From Eledone cirrhosa (taxonomy: Eukaryota): 64,000 nucleotides of DNA. Positions 2,678 through 63,300 of the stretch are shown here, piece after piece. The notes beneath the pieces are model-generated. The model worked only from the letters and a program-made list of their open reading frames with translations. It did no database searches and was not told the DNA's origin. The DNA lies in assembly GCA_964016885.1 (NCBI GenBank), contig OZ024749.1:53444001-53508000 (forward strand), given 5' to 3'. How positions within the stretch are numbered: the stretch's first letter is position 1; the number at the start of each line of letters is the position of its first letter. The translations under genes and the position numbers were made by a program.

Positions 2678-2776
2678 AGGCAGGAACATGATTAATTAAT
2701 TAATATAGCAACCACTAAGAAATGAATGTCATCACAATCAAGGGAAACATTATACAAGTCTTGTCACCCCACTGTT

Positions 2777-3208
2777 CATCATGATCGTTATTTTACGTCT
2801 GCTTTTCCCTGCTTGCAAGGGTTGGACGGGTCTTATTCAGCACAGCATCTCTCCACTTGTCACGGTCCTTGGTCATCTCCTCGGTGAGTATCAGCGATCT
2901 GAGGTCTGCTCTCACCACCTCCGCCCATGTTTTTCGTGGTCTACCTCTACTGCGTCTTCCTTCTACTGGGATTTCTTGGCACTTCTTTACCCAGCGGTCA
3001 TCCTCCATGCGCATCACAGTCTTCTCTCCTGCACACCACAACTTATCCCTCTTATACCCAGTTTCTTTCTCAACTCAGCTATGCTTGTTCGTTCACGCAC
3101 ATTGGCATTGCACATCCAATGGAGCATACTTGCTTCATTTCTCTCCAGCCGTCGCTTATCTTCTGCAGTTGCTGCCCATGTCTCATTACCATGCCCTTTC
3201 GTACGCAC
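2777..3208 (-). mobile_element. RTE LINE 3' fragment (subfamily A) with internal deletions; a shorter + strand copy lies at about 7715-7851
   Basis: Encodes WVKKCQEIPVEGRRSRGRPRKTW...TRPTLASREK, nearly the same as the 10622 copy. Confidence 0.93.
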
Positions 3209-6769: not shown

Positions 6770-7997
6770 CTGAAAGTACAAAGATGTCATCAAATAACAA
6801 CATATTTGCCACAACAGAATTCAAATATGTCTGTGGTGTATGTGTGTGAGCAAACCTGGTATACATTCAAAATATTTATGTATTATCACTATCATCATTT
6901 AACACATGATTTCCATGCTAGCAAGGGTTGGATGGATGGTCACAGACTAAGTCAACACTCAAACAGAGCTACTGACCTGTCAAACAGACTTGAGGCCCAC
7001 ACCTTGCACATATGATATCGCACTACTGAATGCAATCTATTGTGGCACCCTCGCAGATGGGCCAGGACCCTACATCTCATATATATTCCCGTAATCTGCC
7101 AAAGCATGTTGTACAACGTTCTACCGATACTCCACTGCCCTATTAAGTTTATTAATTATACATATATTTCATTTGCAGATAAACTAGCTAAAGGCGTTCC
7201 TATTGGAAATAACTGAAGTCCATTATTAGTTGACTTATATTTATCTTCGTGTGACTATTTAATAGTTTATGTGAACAAAAAAACAAAAAGATCTTATTAA
7301 CTCTTTTGATAACCAATCAGCTGAGACTGTGGTCCTATGATAGGCATGTATGGTCCCATAACTCTTGATGGAGGTGTATGGGTACCTTAGTGGCATATGG
7401 CATTAGTTTCCAGGGTATTTTGAGCCTGGCGGAGCCCACCCACCCCAGATTTCTTTCAGAGAAGGATAGAAAGGGATATAGAGGAAGAATTGACCCCAGT
7501 ACTTCACTGGTACTTTATCGACCTTAAAAGGGTGAACGACAAAGTTGACTGTGGCCGGAACTCAGAGGGCAGAGAGCTGGAACAAATACCGCAAAGCATT
7601 TTATCTGATGTTCTAAAGACTGCCATATTCACTGCCTATGTCTGATGATATAAAACTATTTATTTTGAAGTATTTATATATATATATATATCTTCCATTG
7701 TCATTTTATCTAAGAACCTGGACAGAGGTGGTGAGAGCTGACCTCAGATCACTGAAACCCACAGGAGATGACAAGGGACCATGACGAATGGAGAGATGCT
7801 GTGCTGAAGAGAACCTATCCAACCCTTGCAAGCAGGGAAAAGCGGATGTAATATGCACCAGCTTAATAGTGAAATCATAGGCAATGTCTTTTATAAGAAA
7901 TATGGAAATGAAAGGGTTAAACGACCGTTTAACATCCATTTTCCATGCTAGCAAGGGTTAGATGAGTTGTCCTATTGAGACAAGTATATAGAGGATA

Positions 7998-8333
7998 TCA
8001 TCATCATCATAATTTTAAGTCCACTTTTCCCTGCTTGCAAGGGTGGGACGGGAACTGATTCTGGCTTGTTTCTACAGCTGGATGCCCTTCCTAACACCAA
8101 CCTCATTTACAGTGAGTGCTGGGTGGTTTTTGCTGTGGCACCTACACGACCACTTTGCAGTGGAATGATAGGGACCCCAGTCCCTATCATCTCATTTCTA
8201 CAGCTGAGTAAACTGGAGCAATGTGAAATAAAGTGTCTTGCTCAAGGAAACAACACATCACCCAGTCTGAGAATTGAACTCACAACCTTTCGATTGCAAA
8301 GCCAATGCTCTAACCACTAAGCCATGTGCCTCC
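7998..8333 (-). mobile_element. Same tRNA-SINE/RTE-tail element
   Basis: Reverse-complement match to 35655-36028. Confidence 0.85.
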
Positions 8334-8868
8334 ATATTTGGTCTTAATTACCATCTTTTTAACATTAATGAACTTCATCTTAGTGATTTGGAAGCAAACA
8401 AAAGTGGTTTTGATGTTAAAAAAAAAAATAAAAAAAAATTAGATGCTAAGGGAGAAAATAATAGATAAATGTTTGTAATATATGCTTCAAATGTAAACCA
8501 TTTTTTTTTTACTCTTCTAAAATTTAATAAAAAGACATAATTGGTGGCCAGCACACTTGCGCAGCATTTGAGAGATGCACGGTAGAATTCCTTGCAGCTA
8601 TCTCTGTCGACCCTATGACTGTCTCCAGAGGTATGTTACCCAATTTTCTCAATTATTTATAGTGACTGGCTAATATAGGAGGTATTTTATGTACAAATGT
8701 ATATAAAACATTCAATACAGTTGAGCAGAGTTGTATGTATATATATACCCTGTAAGGCAGTCGTATTGGTGATAAGACAAAAAGCACCCAGTCCACCATG
8801 TAAGACGACCCTGTGGTAAACAGGTAAAACTCCAGAGTAACAAGACTCACTATTTAGCCATATTAAAT

Positions 8869-9418
8869 ATCATCGTCATCATCACCGTTTTACGTCCGTT
8901 CTTCCACGCTAGCATGGGTTAGACGGGTTGTCCTGTTGTGGGCTGTGTCCGGTCGGTTGACCTTGTCTTGCTCATACGGGAACTGATTCTGGCTTGATTT
9001 CTACAGCTGGATGCCCTTCCTAACACCAACCTCATTTAGAGTGATGGGTGCTTTTTTTCAGTGGAACCTACACGTCCACTTTACAGTGTGGGCTGGGTGC
9101 TTTTTTGCCGTGGCACCTCCACGACCACTTTGCAGTGGGAGGGTGTGGGGGCATATTGTCTATATGCTTCAGCTCGGCTTATACCCGTGGGGGGTTGGGT
9201 CTTCTGTATTACTGTGTGACGCCAGTAAGGTCGGCTTTTATTACCTCATCCCACGTCTTCTTGGGTCTCCCCACTCCGCGGTTTCCATCGACTTCTAGTG
9301 TTCTGCAGCTCTCATCCTTCATTCGCATCACATGTCCATACCAACGCAACCACCTCTCCTGCACACAGCATTTGATTCCTCTTATGCTCAGTCTCTCTCT
9401 CAATTCATTTATGCTTTG

Positions 9419-9419
<1 letters not shown>
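8869..9419 (-). mobile_element. RTE LINE 3' fragment (subfamily B), 5' end at (TA)n
   Basis: LRWYGHVMR..GRPKKTW; long 3'UTR and (CAT)n tail shared with the 45897, 57398 and 60324 copies. Confidence 0.92.
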
Positions 9420-9487
<68 letters not shown>

Positions 9488-9611
9488 GTAGGAGGTGAGT
9501 TTTATTGTAGAACAATAAAATTATGCATATATCGGATAAGTAGCACTCAACAGTTTATTGAACTGGAGTATATATAAGAAGAAATTAAAAGATAGTTAAA
9601 AAAGTTCCATA

Positions 9612-9682
9612 TATTTTATTATGCGCATTTCAAAAACAAATATCATCCTGGAACGATAGTTGCGTTCTCATCAGATAAAATA
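9612..9682 (-). ncRNA. Type I minimal hammerhead ribozyme (element A, left arm; sense to the FMR1-like pre-mRNA)
   Basis: Reverse complement of 9803-9873 with one change near the stem II loop; core intact. Confidence 0.85.
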
Positions 9683-9802
9683 GGGTTACATGATATGATG
9701 GCTAAAAAAACACTTGTGAACAAGAAAGTGTCTAGTCAACATATGTTGACTAGACACTTTCTTGTTCACAAGTGTTTTTTTAGGCATCATATCATGTTAC
9801 CT

Positions 9803-9873
9803 TATTTTATCTGATGAGAACGCAACTATCGTCCCAGGATGATATTTGTTTTTGAAATGCGCATAATAAAATA
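9803..9873 (+). ncRNA. Type I minimal hammerhead ribozyme (element A, right arm)
   Basis: TATTTTAT-CTGATGA-[about 16 bp stem II]-GAAA-TGCGCA-TA-ATAAAATA; 8 bp stem I; palindromic stem III ATGCGCAT. Confidence 0.85.
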
Positions 9874-10587
9874 TATGGAACTTTTTTAACCATCTTAATT
9901 TCTTCTTATATATATATATATATATGCATTCAAGGGCCAAGTCTCACTCCCATGCACCATAACACTTCATGCAATCTGCTCTTCACTCAGAGAGAAACCC
10001 TAACCCTATGTAACTATCAAAAAGGTAATAGTTCCCTGAACTTTTTTGTTTTTATTCCCACTGGTTCTTATTCTACCTTGGCTTGTGGAAAGTAGTGCCA
10101 AAATACTCAAATTAATCGACCATATCCAAAATGGCACCACTGAGAATGATAGAGGCCCATTCAGAAGGCAAAGATGCCAGAGAATACTATCTTAATCTTG
10201 GCTACATTGATTTTCATTCCAAAATGTGATTGCATACACACTAAGGTGTTCAACAGATGACATATTTTTTTACAACTATGTCAAGGTCATTGAAACTGAA
10301 GTAAATATAAACAGGCTGGAGCAAAAGTCATGCAACACCAAATAATCAACATTTACTTACAAAAATAACAAATATGAAGAATATTTGATGACAAAGTGTT
10401 ATTTTACTGGAGCACGACTTTTGCACCACCATGTATATCATTATCATCATTTTTAAGTCTGCCTTTTTCTTGGTTGCATGGGTTAGATGGAGACATTTTC
10501 AGGGAGGTTTTCTATGACTGTCAACCCAAACTTCTTAAAAAAACAGCCATGTTTGCACCTATATCTGCATACAATACATACATATAC

Positions 10588-10618
<31 letters not shown>

Positions 10619-10621
10619 AAG

Positions 10622-12006
10622 ATGATATATGAGATGCAGTTTGGTTTTGTGCCTGGGAAGAGTACAACAGATGCCCTCTTCTTGGTGAGACAAATGCAAG
10701 AGAGGTTCTTAGAGAAGAATAAGCCACTATACTTAGCCTTTGTTGACCTAGAGAAGGCCTTTGATAGGGTACCCCGATCTGTCATCTGGTGGTCCCTAAG
10801 GAAGCTAGGTGTTGAGGAATGGCTTGTGAGGACAGTGCAAACTTTGTACAGTGGTACTCTCAGTAAAGTCAGGGTAGGAATGGAGTTTAGTGAGGAATTC
10901 CAGATACAAGTAGGAGTACATCAGGGCTCGGTCCTCAGCCCGCTCCTGTTCATTATAGTCCTCCAAGCCATAACAGAGGAGTTTAAGACTGGCTGTCCAT
11001 GGGAACTTCTCTATGCTAACGATCTGGTTCTTATAGCAGAATCAGTAGAGGAGCTAGAGAATAAATTCTGGCTATGGAAACAGCAGTTGGAAGCAAGAGG
11101 ACTGAGAGTGAATCTAGCTAAGACAAAAGTGTTGATGAGTAGAAAAGAGGACAAAACCCTGATTCCGTCAAGGAAATGGCCATGTTCGATATGCAGAAAA
11201 GGAACTGGCATAAATTCTATAAAATGCACACAATGCAGATCCTGGGTACACAAGAGATGTAGCGGGATAGCAGGCAAACTTACAGGTAGGGAGAAATATG
11301 TATGCAGTAGATGTACAGGGAAATTAGACAGTAGAAGTCGCACTGATAGACACATTTTTCAAATGCAAGAGGGCGCTATAGAAGTGGTGGATAGCTTCCG
11401 GTACCTAGGAGATCAGATTAGCATGGGAGGAGGGTGTTCCGAGGCCATTGTATCTAGAATAAGGACGGGTTGGAAGAAGTTTAGGGAGCTGCTTCCTCTG
11501 TTGACGAAGAAGGGTTTCTCCCTGCGTACGAAAGGTCAGTTGTATGATGCCTGTGTGAGGAGCGCGATGCTGCATGGTAGTGAGACATGGGCAGCAACAG
11601 CAGAGGATATGCGACGGCTGGAGAGAAATGAGGCAAGCATGCTCCGTTGGATGTGCAGTGTAAATGTGCGTGAACGACCCAGCATAAATGTGTTGAGAGA
11701 GAAACTGTGTCTGAGAGGGATAGAATGTAGTGTACGGGAGAGGAGACTGAGGTGGTATGGACATGTGATGCGCATGGACGATGACCGATGGGTGAAGAAG
11801 TGCCAGGAAATGCCAGTTGAAGGAAGACGTGGTAGAGGTAGACCACGAAAAACATGGGCAGAGGTGGTGAGAACAGACCTCAGATCATTGAAGCTCACGG
11901 TGGAGATGACAAGGGACCGTGACGAGTGGAGAGATGCTGTGCTGAATAAGACCCGTCCCACCCTTGCAAGCAGGGAAAAGCGGACGTAAAATGATGATGA
12001 TGATGA
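10622..12006 (+). mobile_element. 5'-truncated RTE-clade LINE (subfamily A), RT with internal PHD finger
   Basis: QFGF, FVDLEKAFDRV, GVHQGSVLSPLLF, YAND (YADD mutated), FRYLG, RRLRWYGHVMR; (TGA)n tail; 5' end next to (TA)n. Confidence 0.95.
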
Positions 12007-12551
12007 AAGCTAGTCAAATAGAATTGATACAGCTTCAGCTGTTTCCTCACTCACTCAATGATAAAATTAGGATTTTAGAGTGCACACACGTTAATACACA
12101 CACTGCTGAAAACAAGAGACTGACATAGAATGCAAATGTATTCAAGAAACCTCTGAACATTTACTGTCTGAGATCCCAAACAAACCAATATTGTAGCAAA
12201 AAACATAAATGAGAGTAGCCTTGTCAAACTTTCTTATTTATCAGAAGCCAACCAGAGAAAGACGATGTATAGTGTAGCAGCAGTGATGACAGTGCCCCAG
12301 CATGGCCACAACACTTGAGTTAGAGAAAGCTTATAAAATAACAATTTTAGACAATTAAAATTTTCCTTTTTCTCTTTTTCTAAATATTGACTTAGGGAAT
12401 CTATTTCAATCCAAATATACTGTCAACTCTTGTAGTTAACCCTTGTTGCAGGCTTTCAGAATATAGCAACATATTCCAACATAGAATACAATAGTTACAT
12501 TATTTAATCATGCCTTTTTTTCACTTAATAACAAATTTATACAGAACTTAC

Positions 12552-43295: not shown

Positions 43296-45896
43296 CCCCA
43301 TCATGGTACAGCACTACCACTTTACAGAATGGGCTTGGTGTATTTTATCATGGCACTAGAACTATCCCATTACAACACTAGGGCCCTCGTTGTCTACCCT
43401 CAGGCTGGGGAGAAAGTAGTGATGCTGAGAAATGTATTTGGTACATATATACCAGTCCATTCTGTAAATGTGGTCGGCATTAAGAAAGGCATCCAACCGT
43501 AGAAACCAAACCAGAAACAGTTCTGTATGAGGAAGACATGGTCACCTGATCTGATTCGTCTCACAATGTCTGTCTAACCCACGCTATCATGGAAAATGGA
43601 CGTTAAACAGTTATGATGATGATACCACTGCATCCACAAAGAAATTAACGTGATGATGCAAGAAAATAGACCAACAGTAATTCAACTTGTACTTGGTGCT
43701 AATTCTTTTTAGAGTACTTCTATACCACATACCTTACACTACTTAAACCAACTCCCCCACCAAAAAAAAGAAAAGAAATGGAAAAGAACCCATATATAGA
43801 TATGTTGAACACATCATAGCAAAATGTGTTGAAATTACAAGGCATTATGATAACATCCTAGTTAAACCTTTTATAAATGATAAATTACTCACACCTACAT
43901 ATACCGCCAATCTAATTAGGACAATTATTTGATTGTCATTACATTTAATACAACTACCATGTAGAAGACAATTCCTTCACATTCCTCACACCACCTACTC
44001 ATAGTTATGTCTCTCTCTAAATATATGTATATAATATATATATATACATACATACACGCACGCACGTCAGAACATCACTCTCTCTCCACACACGTCAAAG
44101 GAACGAGCCAGATTTCACTTTTTCATTCGTTTGTTTGTGATTTGTATTACATTCATTTTGCTTTAATGAATGAATGGAATGGTTATTGTTAAAAGCAATT
44201 GTTGTTAGAACTTTGATGTCTTTGATTCTGTCAGCCAAACTCCATCTAGTAAGGCCTTATAAAGGGCACAACACTAAAACTGTACTAGTACATCTATAGC
44301 ATTGTGCCTCCCAACATTAACCCTTTTGATACTGTTTGTTTTAAAGTATCTATATCTATCTAAAAATCCCCCTTAGTAAGAAACTTTAAGTTACATTTCA
44401 AACAGTTTAATAATGAGATGCCTCATAAAAGTTGCACAAGTGCCAGCCTTTAACCTGTGCAAACATGGAAGAATGGGCATAGAAGCAATGACTTCCTGAC
44501 TCTAGATATATCTTAAGCATCAAACAAAGATTTCTAATCTAATCCAGGGGCTTTTCACTCCTGTTGGAGGAACACCTCCATTTTCTGTTTGGTTGTAGTC
44601 ATACCTTCAGGGGTGTAGCCATATTCACCATGTTTGCAAATTGTGGGTTGGTGAGGCTATTTCACTCAAAGTTGGGGTGCATGGCCATTGAAATTGAGTT
44701 CAACAGCTCTTGTTTTTTGTGCTGCTGAGGTTTCACATACCCTCCTCACCAGACCAGGGTCTAATTGCCGACTCCTCGACTATCAAGTGTGTTGTACTGG
44801 GTTACATGGTACCAGTAGTAAGTAGAAACCTGACCTGACTTACAAAGATTTAGTATTGAATAAGTTAATTCTTGTCCCATCGAAACAGAGACATGTATAC
44901 ATTGTGTCTACTAAGAAACTAAGACTTTAACTGGGTCAGCTTAAAAGATTACCAGTAATATGTTTTACATAATAACTATATTTCCATTCAATAAATCCAA
45001 GTGACTGCTCTGTGAAGACTGGTAATGGCAAATGACAGGACTTTAACTCTTAAATGTATTGTTATAAAAAATGTGTGTGTGTGTGAGAGAGTCTGGCAGA
45101 ATGTTGGTTGACAGTCTGCCAAACTACATCCAGGCAATGCAACCCCCACATCACTAACACAAGAGAAGTAACACCACAAGAGCATGAGGATAGAGAAAAA
45201 GCCCTCAATGCCCATATGGTGATGTGGACAAATATAATGCAGCCCAACAAAAGGACTGCCAACAACTTCCAGGCCTGGAACAATGACGTGCCAGCGTTGT
45301 ATGGGCTTCGAAAAGACCATAAAACGAGCAGTGACCCTGTCACGAGACCACCAACACGGCCAGTCTGTGGAGCTAACATTGCTAGTAACTACAGACTGTC
45401 CTACTTCCTCTCCCTGATCATACGCCCCATCATTGAAATGTCCCCAGATGTATGTGACAGCACGGAGGACCTCCTCAGCAGAATCGGCGAGGATAACCAA
45501 TCTAGGGACCGAACAAACTGCATAATGGGTAGTATGGATGTTGTGTCCCTGTATCCATCTATTGATGTGGATTTTGCTGTGGAGAAATGCGTAGAAATGA
45601 TCAGTGAGAGCAATGTTGAGTTGAGTTGCGTGGGATTGATACCTGTGAGCTGGGACTCCTACTTAAACTTACCTATAGTAATAATTATCTAGACGCATAT
45701 GACCTTAGCAACCTGTGCCCTACAAGACCAGCAAGAGGCAGACCACCTACCATTACCTCAATGGCCAAGAAAACCTACACAGATGGATGGAACGGGTGGA
45801 CCAGAGCCATACGGACCTCTGAAAACCACAATGAACTAAAGAAAATGATTACACATGCGGTGGGGGCCAGCATAAAATTAACCCTTAAGGAACATA

Positions 45897-47812
45897 TCAT
45901 CATCATCACCGTTTTACGTCCGTTCTTCCACGCTAGCATGGGTTAGACGGGTTGTCCTGTTGTGTGCAGTGTCTGGTCGGCTGACCATGCCTTGCTCATA
46001 CAGGAACTGATCTGGCTTGATTTCTACAGCTGGATGCCCTTCCTAACACCAACCTCATTTACAGTGAGTGCTGGGAGCTTTTTCGTGGCGCCTACACGTC
46101 CACTTTACAGTGTGGGCTGGGTGCTTTTTTTTGCCGTGGCACCTCCACGATCACCTTGCGGTGGGGGCATATTGATTATATGCTTCAACATGTACCCATG
46201 GGAGGTCGGGTACTCTGTATTACTGCGTGACGCCAGAAGTCACGGTCGTGTGTCATTGTCTTTGAGAGGTGTAATTGGGTAAGGTCGGCTTTTATCACCT
46301 CATCCCAGGTCATCTTGGGTCTCCCCACCCCGCGGTTTCCATCAACTTCTAGTGCTCTGCACCTTTTTATGCAGCTCTCATCCTTCATACACATCACATG
46401 TCCATACCAGCGCAACCGCCTCTCCTGCACACAGCATTTGATTCCTCTTATGCTCAGTCTCTCTCTCAATTCATTTATGCTTTGTTGTTCACGTATATTA
46501 CTGTTACACATCCATCGGAGCATGCAGGCTTCGTTTCTCTCTAATCTACATAAGTCTTCCACCTTCAGCGCCCAGGTCTCACTACCATGCAACATCGCTG
46601 TTCAGATACACGTATCATACAGTCTGCCTTTCATTCTGAGGGAGAAGCCTTTTGCAGCTAGCAGTGGTAGTAGTTCTCTAAACTTCTTCCATCCCGTTCT
46701 TACCCTAGTTATTGTACTTTCTGAACACCCACCTCCGTTGCTAATTCGGTCACCTAGGTAGCAGAAGCTGTCTACTGTTTCTACAGGGCCCTCCCAGAGA
46801 TTGGTGGTACTTGTTTCCTGTGGCTGTTTGCTGCTTGCTGTCCCAGCACAGCTGCTACATGTGAAGCCTACATTCTTAATTAAGCTTCCTGAGATCCCGC
46901 TACATCTCTTGTGTACCCATTGTTTGCATTTGGGGCAGAGAATGGAGTTCCTACCTACACCTTTCCTACATACTGAGCAAGGCCATTTCTCTGAGGGGTT
47001 CTGTTTTCTCGTTTACTTACAAGGACCTTAGTCTTTGTCATGTTGACTTTGAGACCCTTTCTCTCTAGTCCCTGCTTCCAGGTTTGGAATTTATTCTCTA
47101 GTTCTATCATAGATTCAGCTATGAGTGCGAGGTCATCAGCATACAGGAGTTCCCATGGGCATCCGGTCTTAAATTCCTCCGTTATTGCCTGCAGGACTAT
47201 GATGAACAGGAGAGGGCTAAGAACAGCCCTGGTGGACCCCAACCTGTACCCTAAATTCCTCGCTATACTCATTGCTAATCCTAACTTTGCTGACTGCTCC
47301 CCTATACATGGCTTGTACCGCTTTCACAAGCCATTCATCTACTCCTAGTTTTCTAAGAGCCCACCAGATTACAGCACGTGGAACTCTGTCAAAGGCTTTC
47401 TCAAGGTCGACAAATGCCAAGTAGAGTGGCTTACTTTTAGCTAGGTACTTTTCCTGTAATTGCCTCACAAGGAAGAGGGCATCAGTGGTGCCTCTTCCTG
47501 GTACAAACCCAAATTGCATCTCGTCTATATTCACCCGGTCCCTAATCAGCTGTGCTATAACTCTTTGTTACTTTCATGACCTGGTCCATCAACTTTATAC
47601 CTCTATAGTTTCCTCTATCTAGTGCATCGCTTTTGCCTTTGTAGCAGTTGACAATGATGCTACTGCACCAATCTTTTGGTATGGCCCCTTCTAGTATTGT
47701 GTGGTTATAGTGTGACCTACAGACCCAGATGCCTTCAGCATCTCGGCAGCTATACCCGATGGACCGGTTGCCTTCCCCATCTTCATATCTCTGATTGCCT
47801 TACTTACTACGC
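45897..47812 (-). mobile_element. RTE LINE (subfamily B), frameshifted, nested in the Penelope RT
   Basis: GKATGPSG, QFGF, YADD, PHD cysteines, RRLRWYGH; Penelope RT sequence resumes on both sides. Confidence 0.95.
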
Positions 47813-49279
47813 TGTTCAAATTTAATGGAAAAACATATGCCCAAGAGGAGGGAGCAGCCATTAGTGTTAGCATTGCAGGCGACATAGCTAACTTATTCAT
47901 GGTATGGTGGGACAGTAGACTTAAACTTAAACAACAATTAGAAGACCCCCTTAACCCTGATAATGTACTCCCGCTAAGTTGATGATATAAACATCGTAGT
48001 TAAAACACCCCCACTAGAGAACAGTCAGGAATTAGAGAAAAACACAATGGAAAGCATCCAGCAAATAGCTAACTCCATCCACCAGAGTATTAGAGTTACT
48101 ATAGACTACCCAAGCAAACACCCCAACCATTGATTACCTGTACTAGACACAGAGCTCTGGTTAGATACCACTAACAAAAAACAAATCCTCCATTCCCATT
48201 ATGCCAAACCCATGACTTCCAAATATCTGATCCACCGAAACTCAGCTGTTTCGGACCATACCAAAATCAACATACTGATTGCGGATTTGGTACGGGTGAT
48301 GAGAAATGTGTCCCGCATGTGCAACCCCGAAGAACTAGAGAGACACATACAACACTTCATCCACCGTATGCAGTTCTCTGGTTACAATCAGAGAGATAAA
48401 ATCAGAGTGTATAGAGGAGCCAGAACCAAATGGTAAATAATGACACAAATGGGACCTGCCCCTTGTATAGGAGCAAATTTTAGAATAGAAAGAACTAGGA
48501 ATAAGGCTAATAGAATAAACTCATGGTATGATAGCAATAAATACCAGTGTAATGTTCATCGATACAACCCCTAGAGGTGAATTAGCTTAGAAATTTAGAA
48601 GGGCCCTAGATAAACTCAATATTAAGATAGTAGAAAGACCAGGTACCTCCATAAAAACACTTATTAGCAAGATATACCCTTTTCAAAGACCCCCCCCCCC
48701 CTGTATAGATAAGAAATGCATAACCTGTAAATTAAGCCCCCATATTAACTGTAAAACTAGAAATGTAGTATATAGCATAAGATGTACTGAAGGACAATGT
48801 AGAGATAAAAATATAGTGTACATAGGTGAGACAGCTCGTAGTGGAGGGGAACGGATAAATGAACACTGGCGAGACCTTCAAGATAGTAAAGAATCATCTG
48901 TACTCTACCAACATGCTAAAATAGAACATAAGGGTAAATTAGAGAACAGAAATAAAAATAGAATCTACACACAGAAAAGACGCAATGTTTAGACAAATCA
49001 CAGAGGCAATAAACATAAAAGAATTACAACCAAAATTAAATAGAAAACATGAGTGGAACAGCAACATCACAACTTACAATTGAGGACAAAATGAAAACAC
49101 ACACGCACATAGAACAAACAACCAACCAGTAACATGTAAATAAACAAATAAACGAATATAAACACACACAGACACCCGGATGTGGCGCATGCGCAGACTG
49201 AGCACACAACACACACACAGAAACAAGATGGTGTAGGACAGAACAAAAGAGAGGCACAAAAACAAAGAAAAGACTCCCC

Positions 49280-49325: not shown

Positions 49326-49521
49326 ATAAACAACCATCTGGTTGTGGAACCAACCAACCAACCGGAAATTTATAAATTTATTATAATAAATTGAAGTGAA
49401 AGCAACTGGTGTGTGTGTGTTTCGTATTGGCAACATGACCCTCCCAAAGTATAACAATATATATATATATTTATATTAATTCAAAATATTAACAAAAATA
49501 GACAATTCTTGTGATCAAGTA

Positions 49522-49588
49522 TATTTTATTATACATATTTCAGAGCTACTGAGCTAACTTCAACAGTACGTCCTCATCAGATAAAATA
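49522..49588 (-). ncRNA. Type I minimal hammerhead ribozyme (element B, left arm)
   Basis: TATTTTAT-CTGATGA-GGACGTACTG...CAGTAGCTCT-GAAA-TATGTA-TA-ATAAAATA. Confidence 0.78.
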
Positions 49589-49671
49589 AGATGATGCATG
49601 ACATACCCTGTCATAGTAGATGGTTATGAATCTTAACCATCTACTATGTCAGGGTATATCATGCATCATCT

Positions 49672-49738
49672 TATTTTATCTGGTGAGGACGTACTGTTGA
49701 AGTTAGCTTAGTAGCTCTGAAATATGTATAATAAAATA
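49672..49738 (+). ncRNA. Core-mutated hammerhead copy (element B, right arm)
   Basis: Same layout, but the core reads CTGGTGA instead of CTGATGA. Confidence 0.65.
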
Positions 49739-49937
49739 TACTTGATCACAAGAATTGTCTATTTTTGTTAATATTTTGAATTAATATTAATAACTCCGGA
49801 AAACCATTCCAGTTGAGTGCTTCCAATCTATTGTAAAACTCATTCTTTGATTTATTCATTGAACCTTGTTTAACCTTTAAATATATATATATATATATAT
49901 ATATAGATATATATATATATGTGTGTGTGCATGTGTA

Positions 49938-52564: not shown

Positions 52565-53176
52565 GAAGCAGAAAAGAAGGTACTAGAAAATCGGAAGAGA
52601 CGGCGTAAAGTTGAATTGTTGAGGCAAGCTTTGTCTGAAGATAAATCACCTCTAAAGAATGACAGTGAAGATTTATTTAAAGAATTAGATGCTCCCAGCA
52701 ATGTTGATAAAGCTGAAGCATTAATATTTCCTTCTGATTTTGATATTAACAATATACAGTTGGCTTCTAATTCTGGTGGCAATGATATAATTTCCAAAAA
52801 TGGTTGTCCTCTTAGTCTTTCATCTCCTCTGTTGGAGCAGTCTACTTCTTCTTCTCTTGTTCAGACCACAACCAGTCACCCTTTCACGGACATCAGTATG
52901 ACCGTCGCTGTCCCTGTTCCTGAAAATTTTCCAAGTACTGGTGTTCTGCAAGATGCGTATTACCCTGCTTCTACAGATATGTGTCTAAAAAATAATATAG
53001 TCAGTTTAGTACCAAAAGACAATGAACCAGATATCATCCAAAGTGCTAAACCCCGTAATTTAACTCCTCCTAACACAATGGACTCCAAGAATCAGAATGT
53101 GTTGTCTTCTACTCAGAATCCACCTGTTGCTCCTCCAAGACGTAAACGAAGACCAAAAAATCTATCGACAAGTCAT
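52565..53176 (+). CDS. WDR44: WDR44 exon 5, 204 aa low-complexity/proline-rich region
   Basis: Open 612 nt between TAG and GTAAGT; EPDIIQSAK, PRNLTP and PPVAPPRRKRR resemble WDR44 EPDIVAST, PRHLTP and PAPPPRKRK. Confidence 0.85.
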
Positions 53177-53811
53177 GTAAGTATTAGCTTTTTTGTTCTG
53201 TTGAACTTATAATAATTAACTCTTTCTTGTTGGCTGTAGCAACAATGTGTGTTGCAATTGAATAAACTATATACTTTTCCTACTAAATTCTCCTAATGTC
53301 TGATATGGTATGGTTTGATCCCGTAACTCCAGGTGGAGTCATAGAACGCTGTATTGACACAGCATTTCTTGGGTATTTTATTCCTGGCAGAACCCATCCC
53401 TCTCCAGGTCTGAAAACAACAAGATTTCTTCCAGAGAAAGATAGAGAGTAAGAGAGAGGAAGTGAAAAAGAGATATAGAGGAAGAATCGATCCCATTACT
53501 AGACTGATACTATCAACCTCAGATGGATAAAAAGCAAAGTTGACTTCAACAGGATTTGAACCGAGAGAGCAGAAAGCTGGATCAAAAACTGCAAAGCTTT
53601 CTATCTGATGTTCTAATAACTCTGTCAAATAAAATAATAAGCTTCCACTTGAAAGTGACTGAAATATGAAGAGTTAAATAAGAATGAATCTGTCTTGTTT
53701 AATCTATTTTGTAGGTAAGATTTGCAAATATAGAACTATTCTTAATTAATCATTGTATTCTAATATTCAGTAATTTACCTAAAAAAACTTCTCTATATTT
53801 TTACTTTGCAG

Positions 53812-58780: not shown

Positions 58781-58988
58781 GTATATATTAATTTTTCTTC
58801 AATATTAATTTAATATTTTTGTTTCATTTACAATTTTTCTTTTCTGTTATAAAAACCGACATTGTTATAATCAATCAACGCCTTTACCTCTACACCTATA
58901 TCTGCTTTAGTTTTTTGGGGGTTTTTTTCAGATTAAGACTTTATATAACTGAAATGCTTTTCCTTTTTTCTTTCTTCGTCGCTTTTAG

Positions 58989-59087
58989 TGAAGGTGATGA
59001 CCATAAAACAGAAGGATCAGAAGAAGATGAATGTAAATCAGAAAGTAGTCGAAGTTTATCCGACCAACATGGGACCAAGAGCAAGGC
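58989..59087 (+). CDS. WDR44: WDR44 exon 9 (EGDDHKTEGSEEDECKSESSRSLSDQHGTKSK)
   Basis: TAG/GTGAGT sites; 99 nt, phase 2-2. Confidence 0.85.
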
Positions 59088-59547
59088 GTGAGTGTACTAT
59101 ATTAACTAATAGAGTATTAACAAGTTACCATAAAAAAAAAACTATTGGCTCTTTTGATACCAACCTGTTGAGAGGAGAAACTCAAATATCTGTGGCCTGT
59201 TTACATGGCCAGTGGAAGGGTATTAGGTGTAAAAGCCAAACATATTATCTTCAATTCTGTGTCCTCACCCAGGTTTGTTTTCATGGGGGCAGTAAATTCT
59301 AGTGAAGTTAAGCAATCTCTGAATATAAAAGTTATTTCTTTTCTTTAAAAAGTTATTAGTCCTTGCCCTTTCGCTCCTTTTCCTATCATTTATAGTCTTT
59401 TACAATACTACTTTATTTTTCTTTGATTGATTTGTATCTTTTGAATATTTCATATTGATTATATATATCTTACATAAATTGTGTTTATATGTACAAAATG
59501 GAATATGTCTCTTAGAAATGAAGGCCATTTTTGAAATTGTTTTACAG

Positions 59548-60323: not shown

Positions 60324-63300
60324 CATCATCACCGTTTTACGTCCGTTCTTCCACGCTAACATGGATTAAATGGGTTGTCCTGTAGTGGGCAGTACCCAGT
60401 CGGCTGACCATGCCTTGCTCATACGGGAACTGATTCTGCTTGATTTCTACAGATGGATGCCCTTCCTAACACCAACCTCATTTACAGTGAGTGCTGGGTG
60501 CTTTTTACTGTGGCGCCGACACGTCCACTTTACAGTGTGGGCTGGGTGCTTTTTTGCAGTGGGAGGGTGTGGGGGCATATTGTCTATATGCTTCAGCTTC
60601 GGCTTGTAGGGGGGGTCGGGTCTTCTGTATTACTGAGTGACGCCAGAGGTCACGGTCATGTGTCATCGCCTTTGAGAGGTGTACTTGGGTAAGGTCGGCT
60701 TTTATCACCTCATCCCAGGTCTTCTTGGGTCTCCCCACTCCGCGGTTTCCATCGACTTCTAGTGCTCTGCACCTTTTTATGCAGCTGTCACCCTTCATAC
60801 GCATCACATGTCCATACCAGTGCAGCTGCCTCTCCTGCACACAGCATTTGATTCCTCTTATGCTCAGTCACTCTCTCAATTCATTTATGCTTTGCCGTTC
60901 GCGTATATTACTATTACACATCTATCAGAGCATGCAGGCTTCGTTTCTTTCTAATCTACGCAAGTCTTCCACAGACAGCGCCCAGGTCTCACTACCATGT
61001 AACATTGCTGTTTGTTTACACGCATCATACAGTCTGTCTTTCATTATGAGGGAAAAGCCTTTAGCTCCCTGAACATCTTCCATCCCGTTCTTACCCTAGT
61101 TATAGTACTTTCCGAACACCCACCTCCGCTGCTAATTCGGTCACCTAGGTAGCAGAAGGTGTATACTGTTTTTACAGAGCCCTCCCAGAGTTTGGTGGTA
61201 CTTGTTTCCTGTGGCTGTTTGCTGCTTGCTGTCCCAGCACAGCTGCTACATGTGAAGCCTACATTCTTAGTTAAGCTTCCTGAGATCCTGCTATATCTCT
61301 TGTGTACCCATTGTTTGCATTTGGGGCAGAGAATGGAGTTCCTACCTACACCTTTCCTACATACTGAGCAAGGCCATTTCCCTGAGGGCATCTGGGTTCT
61401 GTTTGCTTGTCTACTTACAAGGACCTTAGTCTTTGTCATGTTGACTTTGAGACCCTTTCTTTCTAGTCCCTGCTTCCAATAAGTCCCTGCACAGCTATAA
61501 GTGCGAGGTCATCTGCATACATGAGTTCCCATGGGCATCCGGTCTTAAACTCCTCCGTTATTGCCTGCAGAACTATGATGAACAGGAGAGGGCTAAGAAC
61601 AGAGCCTTGGTGGACACCAACCTGTACGCTAAATTCCTATCTATAGTCATTGCTAATTTGCTGACTGCTCCCCTATACATGGCTTGTACAGCTTTCACAA
61701 GCTATTCATCTACTCCTAGTTTTCTAAGAGCCCACCAGATTATAGCATGTGGAACTCTGTCAAAGGCTTTCTCGAAATCGACAAATGCCAGATAGAGTGG
61801 CTTACTTTTAGCTAGGTACTTTTCCTGTAACTACCTCACAAGGAAGAGGGCATCAGTGGTGCCTCTTCCTGGCACAAACCCAAATTGCATCTCATCTAGT
61901 TTCACCCAGTCCCTAATCAAATGTGCTATAACTCTTTCTGTTACTTTCATGACCTGGGGAAATTATTCGGAGGAATACCAAGTCAGCGGAAAGTCGTTTC
62001 TGGGAATTGTTAGATCATGCGCAAATGGGTGACAGGATGCCAAGCTCCTATTTGCGACATCTGCGGGAGTTGAGTGACTCCCAGGGGATGGACACCCCAT
62101 TCCTCAAACAACTATTTTTCTCTCGTTTACCGCCAAGTGCGCAAAGGGTCTTGGTCAATAATTTGGAGAGGGAATCGTTAGATCGACTTGCCGCATCCGC
62201 GGATAGAATACTAGAGGTGGACTCTAACAGCAGTCGGCATAATCCTTGTGTGGCTTCTTCTTCTGTCCCCCCACGCAATTCTTCTGTGGCCGACAGCAAA
62301 CTGTTGGAGATGATCGAAGTGCTTACCAAAAAAGTGCAACATAGAGAGCCTTCTCAACGTTTAAGGTACCGTTCACCTCCGTCTGCTATTCCTCGAAACC
62401 GCTACGAGTACCGTTCGCCACCGTCTTCTGTTCCTCGCCAACACTACACTTCAGGCAGCAGTAATTCTTTGATTTGTTGGTATCATGTTAACTTTGGCAG
62501 TCGGGCGCCTTGTAGCTATAGGAGTTCGGAAAACGCCAATCAGAGCCACTAGGGGCGGCTAGTGAACTCTGGGAAACTCGACCAAACCGTCATCTTTTTG
62601 TGTACGATCTGCAGTCAAAAAAATTTTTTATTGTCGACACTGGCGCATCACTAAGTATTTGGCCAGTCAGTTATCTTAAAAAAAACCCATCTGAATCAAA
62701 TATCAATTTACGAGCAATCAACAACACAGCCATTCGAACGTACGGGCAAATTTCGCTTCCTCTTCGGTTTAAAAATTTGTGTCGTGAATTGAAGTGGAAG
62801 TTTACTATCGCCGACTTGCCATACGCCATTTTGGGAGCGGATTTCCTCCACCATTTTTCCTTATCGATTGACATCCGCAGACAACGACTTTTTGATGCTA
62901 ATACAGGCCTATCGTTCGAGGGTACAAAGCCGGAGATCGCCACAGTAAGCCCTGCTTTTTTCTTGGCTGAAGTGGGCAACCAGTATCACAGTTTGTTTTA
63001 CGATTTTTATTAAAAATCTGGTTGGAGGTGATTGTAGTGACCTACATTCCGCGGGCTCACATACATTCTCTGTGCGTGATTTGGCTCAGCTCAGCCAATC
63101 AGCGCCAGTAGAGGAGGATGTATCCCTACGCGTCCTGAGGGAGAAATTACCCGCGAAGATTTGAAGAATCTCTCTCTCTCGTACCAGGGACTTCGAACCA
63201 GCAACACGTATATGTGACGGTGAGATTTTGCACCTTAACCTGCCGACTTTCTGGCGCAATGATACATTCCCTTTTATAACCTCATTTTTATGTGTAACTT

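Follow-up and report, generated by a model that had tools for sequence, protein, structure and literature searches.

Location and structure of the palindrome

The window, meaning the whole 64-kb stretch of Eledone cirrhosa DNA analysed here, contains a palindrome within an intron of the FMR1 gene. FMR1 occupies the minus strand, with matches to the Pfam domains Tudor_FRX1, Agenet, KH_9 and KH_1 in exon order; since the exons were scanned one at a time, most of these do not reach the curated cut-offs. The Agenet exon also matches the solved FMR1, FXR1 and FXR2 chains (E-values 1e-10 to 3e-7), and together with the exon order this bears out the intronic location put forward in a preliminary description of this DNA. 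The intron boundaries, read from the sequence, are a GT at 12551 and an AG at 6770, and the insert lies mid-intron, with the donor ~2.6 kb and the acceptor ~2.7 kb away. The features are as follows:

6770..12551, minus strand: host FMR1 intron of 5,782 nt in phase 0, flanked by the Tudor-1 and Agenet-2 exons (ends read from sequence)
9420..9485, no strand: (TA)n target, left part
9488..9568, minus strand: optional 81-nt "tail", +175 to +255, on the left arm only
9542..9548, minus strand: GAGTGCT motif at +195, 21 nt past the short end
9569..9742, minus strand: left arm, pseudo-LTR (pLTR) +1 to +174 of a Hydra-like Penelope element, in FMR1-transcript sense
9612..9682, minus strand: type I hammerhead with CUGAUGA at 9674-9668, GAAA at 9631-9628, AUGCGCAU at 9628-9621 and a predicted cut after 9620
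9740..9745, no strand: CATATG hexamer at the junction, native to the pLTR 5' edge, the putative source of micro-homology for the join
9743..9916, plus strand: right arm, pLTR +1 to +174, tail-less, its final bases blending into (TA)n
9803..9873, plus strand: type I hammerhead with CUGAUGA at 9811-9817, GAAA at 9854-9857, AUGCGCAU at 9857-9864 and a predicted cut after 9865
9909..9926, no strand: (TA)n target, right part

The two arms (9569-9742 and 9743-9916) meet at 9742/9743 with 0 nt between them, in agreement with the ~170 bp spacer-less mirror described from the letters. Their ungapped identity is 92%, and a gapped alignment over 174 columns contains 5 substitutions and one 2-nt gap; with two other copies as reference, all five substitutions, a small number, were assigned to the left arm. 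The 81-nt tail on this arm makes the unit asymmetric. For the palindrome as a whole the predicted folding energy is -276.6 kcal/mol (z -37.8), a value equalled by none of 100 shuffles. The outer flanks are (TA)n on both sides, and for this reason a target-site duplication is unreadable.

Several other mobile elements lie in the window. Pieces of RTE-type LINEs with a PHD finger were found in FMR1 introns in both orientations (10487-11989 on the plus strand, 9212-9418 on the minus strand, and 2775-3194), and the regions 2775-3194 and 11572-12007 make up a 436-nt inverted pair (85%) spanning several exons. Broken pieces of another Penelope-like element at 45087-45946 and 48134-48992 (plus strand), with reverse transcriptase (RT) fragments and a GIY-YIG endonuclease (EN), are split by an RTE-type LINE; this EN is Neptune-like in its Cx4CxxC linker and two core cysteines. 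At 61953-63013 (plus strand) an LTR-type retroelement is represented by gag-like and protease-like frames, and locus L037 has a near-identical piece. Exon-like frames of a second host gene are located at 52565-53212 and 58792-59091 (plus strand).

Hammerhead motifs and predicted activity

Both arms contain the CUGANGA and GAAA boxes, an NUH triplet (AUA), stem I, stem II and a palindromic stem III, so that the full hammerhead layout claimed for each arm is present, with predicted cuts after 9865 (plus) and 9620 (minus). On the plus strand stem I (9803-9810/9866-9873) has 8 bp, every pair being A-U, and the stem II region (9818-9853) measures 36 nt; the minus-strand hammerhead is a mirror of this copy. 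The description of these motifs as "intact" holds for the layout only, as pair 10.1-11.1 is a G-U wobble on both arms and not the canonical G-C. Among 60 aligned copies selected by similarity, 49 have U and 11 have C at position 11.1, and the core boxes are almost invariant. A strict core test was passed by 41 of 62 family matches, and the retention of core letters on both arms is therefore what is expected of a young family. The hammerhead search that had been suggested gave no hammerhead when the whole window was scanned with Rfam at the gathering score. Its single match was tRNA-like, just at that score, at 8263-8326 (minus strand) in the same intron as the palindrome, and probably marks the head of a tRNA-derived SINE.

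On its own, an arm is predicted to fold no more stably than its shuffles (z 0.09, -1.29 and 0.06). Stem I is predicted to form with a probability of ~0.5 and the monomer stem III with 0.002, while the stem III octamer pairs with itself at a predicted -10.5 kcal/mol, from which it follows that a dimer would be needed. The locus has one sense ribozyme copy per strand and no tandem partner. An FMR1-sense transcript contains the antisense arm upstream of the sense ribozyme; in this read-through RNA the ribozyme has a predicted mean pairing of 0.998, the probability of hammerhead stem I is 0, the longest unbroken stack of the hairpin comprises 93 pairs, and no hammerhead helix is predicted.

These predictions support a long pre-mRNA hairpin that would mask the ribozyme, as had been proposed, and the ribozymes are likely locked within it and silent. 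The accompanying statement that either strand yields a sense ribozyme preceded by its antisense is correct for read-through RNA and would not apply to an RNA starting within the pLTR near the centre. Likewise, masking is predicted, but the term "self-silenced" overstates the contribution of the hairpin: silence is predicted whether or not the mirror arm is present, given the missing dimer partner, the unstable monomer stem III and the weakness of hammerheads of Penelope-like elements (PLEs). The ribozyme itself is predicted to be weak irrespective of the mirror, in view of its stem III, the lack of a tandem partner and the G-U at 10.1-11.1. According to the accessible parts of the sources, metazoan PLE hammerheads cleave weakly, dimers included (PMC4209133, PMC6765202), and one of them requires the protein of its element (PMC11167929). 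With purified viroid hammerheads AUA was the slowest among four triplets (PMC1636495).

A second spacer-less palindrome is present in the window at 49468-49792. It belongs to a different family, with ~162-bp arms, TA-rich flanks and a hammerhead in each arm, the plus arm carrying a CUGGUGA change. The 8-bp stem I is the same. By eye, this 49.5-kb family also has G-U at 10.1-11.1, and the pair is possibly tolerated.

The parent element

A 22-mer seed from the 3' part of the pLTR has 10,057 exact matches genome-wide (control 0) and a 16-mer from the hammerhead 4,939 (control 2). With the arm as query, the 3.0-Gb genome returned 1,203 candidates, of which 40 were scored, the top copies being 96-99% identical. 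Copies end at either of two points, ~+174 or ~+255. In longer copies ~1 kb of 3' UTR precedes the arm, and upstream of this lie reading frames for RT and a GIY-YIG-type EN in the same sense. Thus at L031 1,001 nt separate the end of the EN ORF from the arm, and at L031, L033 and L037 the pLTR is at the 3' end of a same-sense ORF for RT plus GIY-YIG. At L039 the tail runs on into an ORF leader with an in-frame ATG 76 nt downstream of it. Because the RT and EN frames lie upstream of the arm and the tail leads into the ORF start at L039, the arm is taken as a pseudo-LTR and the extra 81 nt as the Penelope "tail".

The RT contains RWI and DKT motifs at L033 and DKT at L039; at L039 and L031 a CxCx5C linker is followed by CxxC and CxH in the EN, and CCHH is absent. 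The EN core between VY and Y(I/V)G has at most one Cys, and the flanks of family copies reveal a preference for (TA)n. RWI-type, DKT, CxCx5C, CxxC, CxH and no CCHH are the defining features of the Hydra clade in the available text of PMC8557442. The parent is an EN+ Penelope-like element by the features tested and probably represents a new Hydra family, the Hydra assignment being made from these motifs and a by-eye likeness to the alignment of the same source. A first reading as Neptune was dropped on the motif test. The Penelope-type minimal type I hammerhead recognised earlier in each arm agrees with this element context as well as with its layout. Pfam scans of three parent ORF pieces gave no family in any of them, a homolog search with the parent EN piece among longer proteins found none, and the literature search found no paper on this pLTR family or the FMR1-intron locus.

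Recurrence of the head-to-head layout

A query across the centre of the palindrome gave a both-strand match at 36 of 40 scored places, the window included (by eye). A head-to-head pattern with both hammerhead 5' halves had 205 matches (control 0), at least one place being counted twice, and lopsided head-to-head junctions yielded 166 and 115 further matches. For the 22-mer seed the first 100 listed places included 23 neighbours within 5 kb, of which 20 were head-to-head, 3 direct and 0 tail-to-tail. The head-to-head pair is thus a common insertion mode of this Penelope family, with ~200 such pairs in the genome, and this frequency, together with published Penelope cases (PMC3846280 and PMC8557442, as far as consulted), removes the grounds for seeing in the palindrome a special or FMR1-relevant design.

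Thirty-one palindromes were aligned, 5 from the arm search, 13 from the across-centre query and 13 from the double-ribozyme pattern; L041, L043, L060 and L063 were left out as duplicates. A long arm is joined to a short one in 28 of the 31, the remainder being short/short (2) and interrupted (1), with no long/long pair. At best 1 in 2 for each pair, 28 of the 30 readable pairs would arise by chance with a probability of ~4e-7 (calculated by hand, two loci probably being duplicates). L069 and L070 have a common junction and probably represent one duplication. Elsewhere junctions differ between loci, which indicates separate insertion events, and a MITE or fold-back element moving as a unit was rejected as there is no fixed centre and the junctions vary. 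Arm homogenisation was sought over the 31 pairs and no clear signal was seen, 11 private alleles being shared by both arms and 59 confined to one arm.

The 5' ends were inspected by eye at 30 loci chosen regardless of 5' end: 11 extend upstream, 8 are near +1 and 11 lie inside the pLTR. As 8 of the 30 stop within a few bases of it, +1 is a 5'-end hot spot, and by analogy with the internal promoter of the Penelope pLTR it is probably the RNA start. At L029:1655 (G000:C27) a pLTR of the FMR1-intron family and an inverted one of the 49.5-kb family meet head to head at CAT|ATG, which suggests common machinery or insertion into an older copy.

A model for the insertion

In all likelihood the palindrome consists of two head-to-head pseudo-LTR copies of this abundant Penelope-like element, placed in a (TA)n tract of the FMR1 intron, likely by one insertion event, and likely functionless. 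The element protein would cut both strands of the TA tract, and each cut end would serve as primer for copying uncleaved element RNA into DNA, starting at +255 (the tail end) in one case and at +174 (the pLTR end) in the other. Both cDNA copies would terminate close to +1, the probable 5' end of the RNA, and be joined through the self-complementary, native CATATG. That the template RNA was uncut follows from both arms reading through the cleavage site; the two-strand priming step we infer from genome anatomy.

Published observations, as available to us in part, are consistent with this scheme. Head-to-head junction palindromes with the tail on one inverted pLTR are on record for Penelope (PMC3846280, PMC8557442). 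The Poseidon protein acts in vitro on AT-rich DNA, both strands of which are cut and extended; it has two RT start sites on the RNA that bound the tail, is a predicted dimer and uses mainly uncut RNA as substrate (PMC11167929). The phrase "twin priming" did not turn up in the Penelope-centred papers listed by the search, older subscription papers not being searchable. A GAGTGCT-like motif lies 24 nt past the long end at L039, and a twin-hairpin start signal at 21 and 24 nt past the two ends was considered and rejected, the predicted folds disagreeing on one hairpin.

A doubtful though possible alternative is that the mirror arose from one cDNA or antisense RNA that folded back at CATATG and copied itself. 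Such self-priming on an antisense template has been proposed for the same type of junction in Adineta Penelope elements (PMC3846280, in the part consulted). The junction in the window, like those of L042 and L052, folds cleanly at the native hexamer, and the arms of a pair have a common subfamily and some private changes (the 11 shared alleles, against 59 in one arm). Against it, many junctions have either arm 5'-shortened or extra letters between the arms, and a simple fold-back by itself provides no reason for the second arm to end at the other fixed site, as it does in 28 of 31 palindromes. We prefer two-strand priming, for which the long/short rule predicts coordinated use of the two RT start sites by the two cut strands. 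The pairs as a population bear on how Penelope elements form inverted ends and a one-sided tail.

Fossils of ribozyme cleavage were sought among the junctions, +124 being the 5' end of the cut product. Among 100 listed of the 166 lopsided junctions, at least 11 fall exactly at +124, whereas the positions +123 to +116 together account for 5 (by eye). A matched control gave 82 matches at +124 and 50 at +121; of the matches sampled, 14 of 30 at +124 and 15 of 30 at +121 proved to be truncations, 2 of the 14 retaining core letters. The resulting estimate is ~33 copies at +124 and ~25 at +121, less than 1% of the family and confounded by micro-homology, and no strong peak at +124 was confirmed against the matched control. 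Inverted-arm truncation points are concentrated at +115 to +103 (66 among 100 listed), with a peak at +111/+110 (by eye). The peak coincides with the 3' foot of hammerhead stem II and may be due to RT pausing or to micro-homology.

Predicted consequences for FMR1

The FMR1 pre-mRNA would fold a ~170-bp hairpin burying the ribozyme. This hairpin may undergo A-to-I editing, as other intronic inverted repeats do, and would be removed with the intron. A hairpin of such length is a plausible ADAR substrate. Of the candidates in the gene it is the tightest, yet the FMR1 span contains 20 other inverted repeat pairs of at least 60 nt (75-92% identity). Access of Dicer to a nuclear intron is doubtful, and neither Dicer processing nor any FMR1-specific role finds support. 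Cephalopod intronic editing tends to coincide with repeats (PMC9068888, in its accessible part). There was no sign of selection, and from position and abundance the insert is likely functionless at FMR1.

A regulated ribozyme switch in FMR1, in which editing or a pLTR promoter unmasks the hammerhead and leads to a cut in the pre-mRNA or to small RNAs, is a very unlikely reading of the insert. Core letters retained on both arms, the capacity of the Penelope pLTR internal promoter to drive downstream exons (PMC2377424, consulted in part) and the coincidence of cephalopod editing with repeats speak in its favour. However, the retained core is no more than the age of the family predicts, a tandem partner is missing, the monomer stem III and the fold of the isolated arm are poor, metazoan PLE hammerheads are weak cutters or protein-dependent, AUA is a slow triplet, the insert is remote from both splice sites, and 20 other inverted pairs share the gene. 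The broader proposal, that the hundreds of 170-bp intronic hairpins of the family are ADAR-edited and that in FMR1 editing or the pLTR promoter unmasks the hammerhead, with pre-mRNA cutting or altered splicing as the outcome, is also very unlikely; if true, a neural gene would hold a ribozyme switch that is transposon-born and controlled by editing. The locus itself is of little weight, being one of ~200 similar pairs, mid-intron and of a published layout.

Chimeric reads can give rise to palindromes, and an assembly or library fold-back artefact is almost certainly not the explanation here, for the arms differ (5 positions, a gap and the 81-nt tail) where a chimera would mirror exactly, their outer ends coincide with the two natural ends of the pLTR family, and the layout recurs at ~200 places with differing junctions. 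The palindrome centre is spanned by none of the pieces listed from the contigs of three runs of one sample, a further contig set and three RAD-seq runs, data in which other family copies dominate.

Comparison with known systems

The closest known elements are those of the Hydra clade (Craig et al. 2021, PMC8557442), including Hydra-1_Obim, with which the parent element shares, according to the parts consulted, RW(K/I), DKT, the CxCx5C linker without CCHH, the CxxC and CxH of the EN, a pLTR hammerhead and the (TA)n target. It is a different family from the published set: two short pLTR seeds and one linker seed are absent from the supplement text, the hammerhead of Hydra-1_Obim has a short stem II, unlike the long one here, and the distance from the ATG to the pLTR end at L033 is ~3.6 kb as against "generally <3 kb".

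Adineta Pen2a_Av, as described in the accessible text of PMC3846280 and PMC8557442, has a head-to-head junction palindrome, a tail at one end and a 5'-truncated inverted copy; the FMR1-intron unit differs in being ORF-less, with two pLTRs only, and in its tail of 81 nt as compared with 30-40. The minimal hammerheads of PLEs (Cervera and De la Pena 2014, PMC4209133, seen in part) are likewise of type I with a palindromic stem III, a long stem II and a predicted need for a dimer, and pairs on opposite strands 100-700 bp apart are reported there; peculiar to the present family are G10.1-U11.1 (49/60), the 36-nt stem II region, the 8-bp all A-U stem I and AUA. Poseidon PAc of Anolis (Frangieh et al. 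2024, PMC11167929) also has an AT-rich target, both strands of which are cut and extended, and its two tail-bounding RT start sites correspond to the two 3' ends found here; it belongs to a different clade, and head-to-head products are not described in the accessible part of that paper.

Non-LTR retrozymes (bioRxiv 10.64898/2026.07.22.740005, available in part) are also non-coding, PLE-derived and equipped with a type I hammerhead. They are defined by direct tandem units, whereas the window has two inverted copies only and no tandem array, and the retrozyme affiliation considered in the preliminary description was rejected on this ground. By the features tested, an EN+ Penelope-like element gave rise to the FMR1-intron insert, which is an inverted-pLTR insertion without an ORF.
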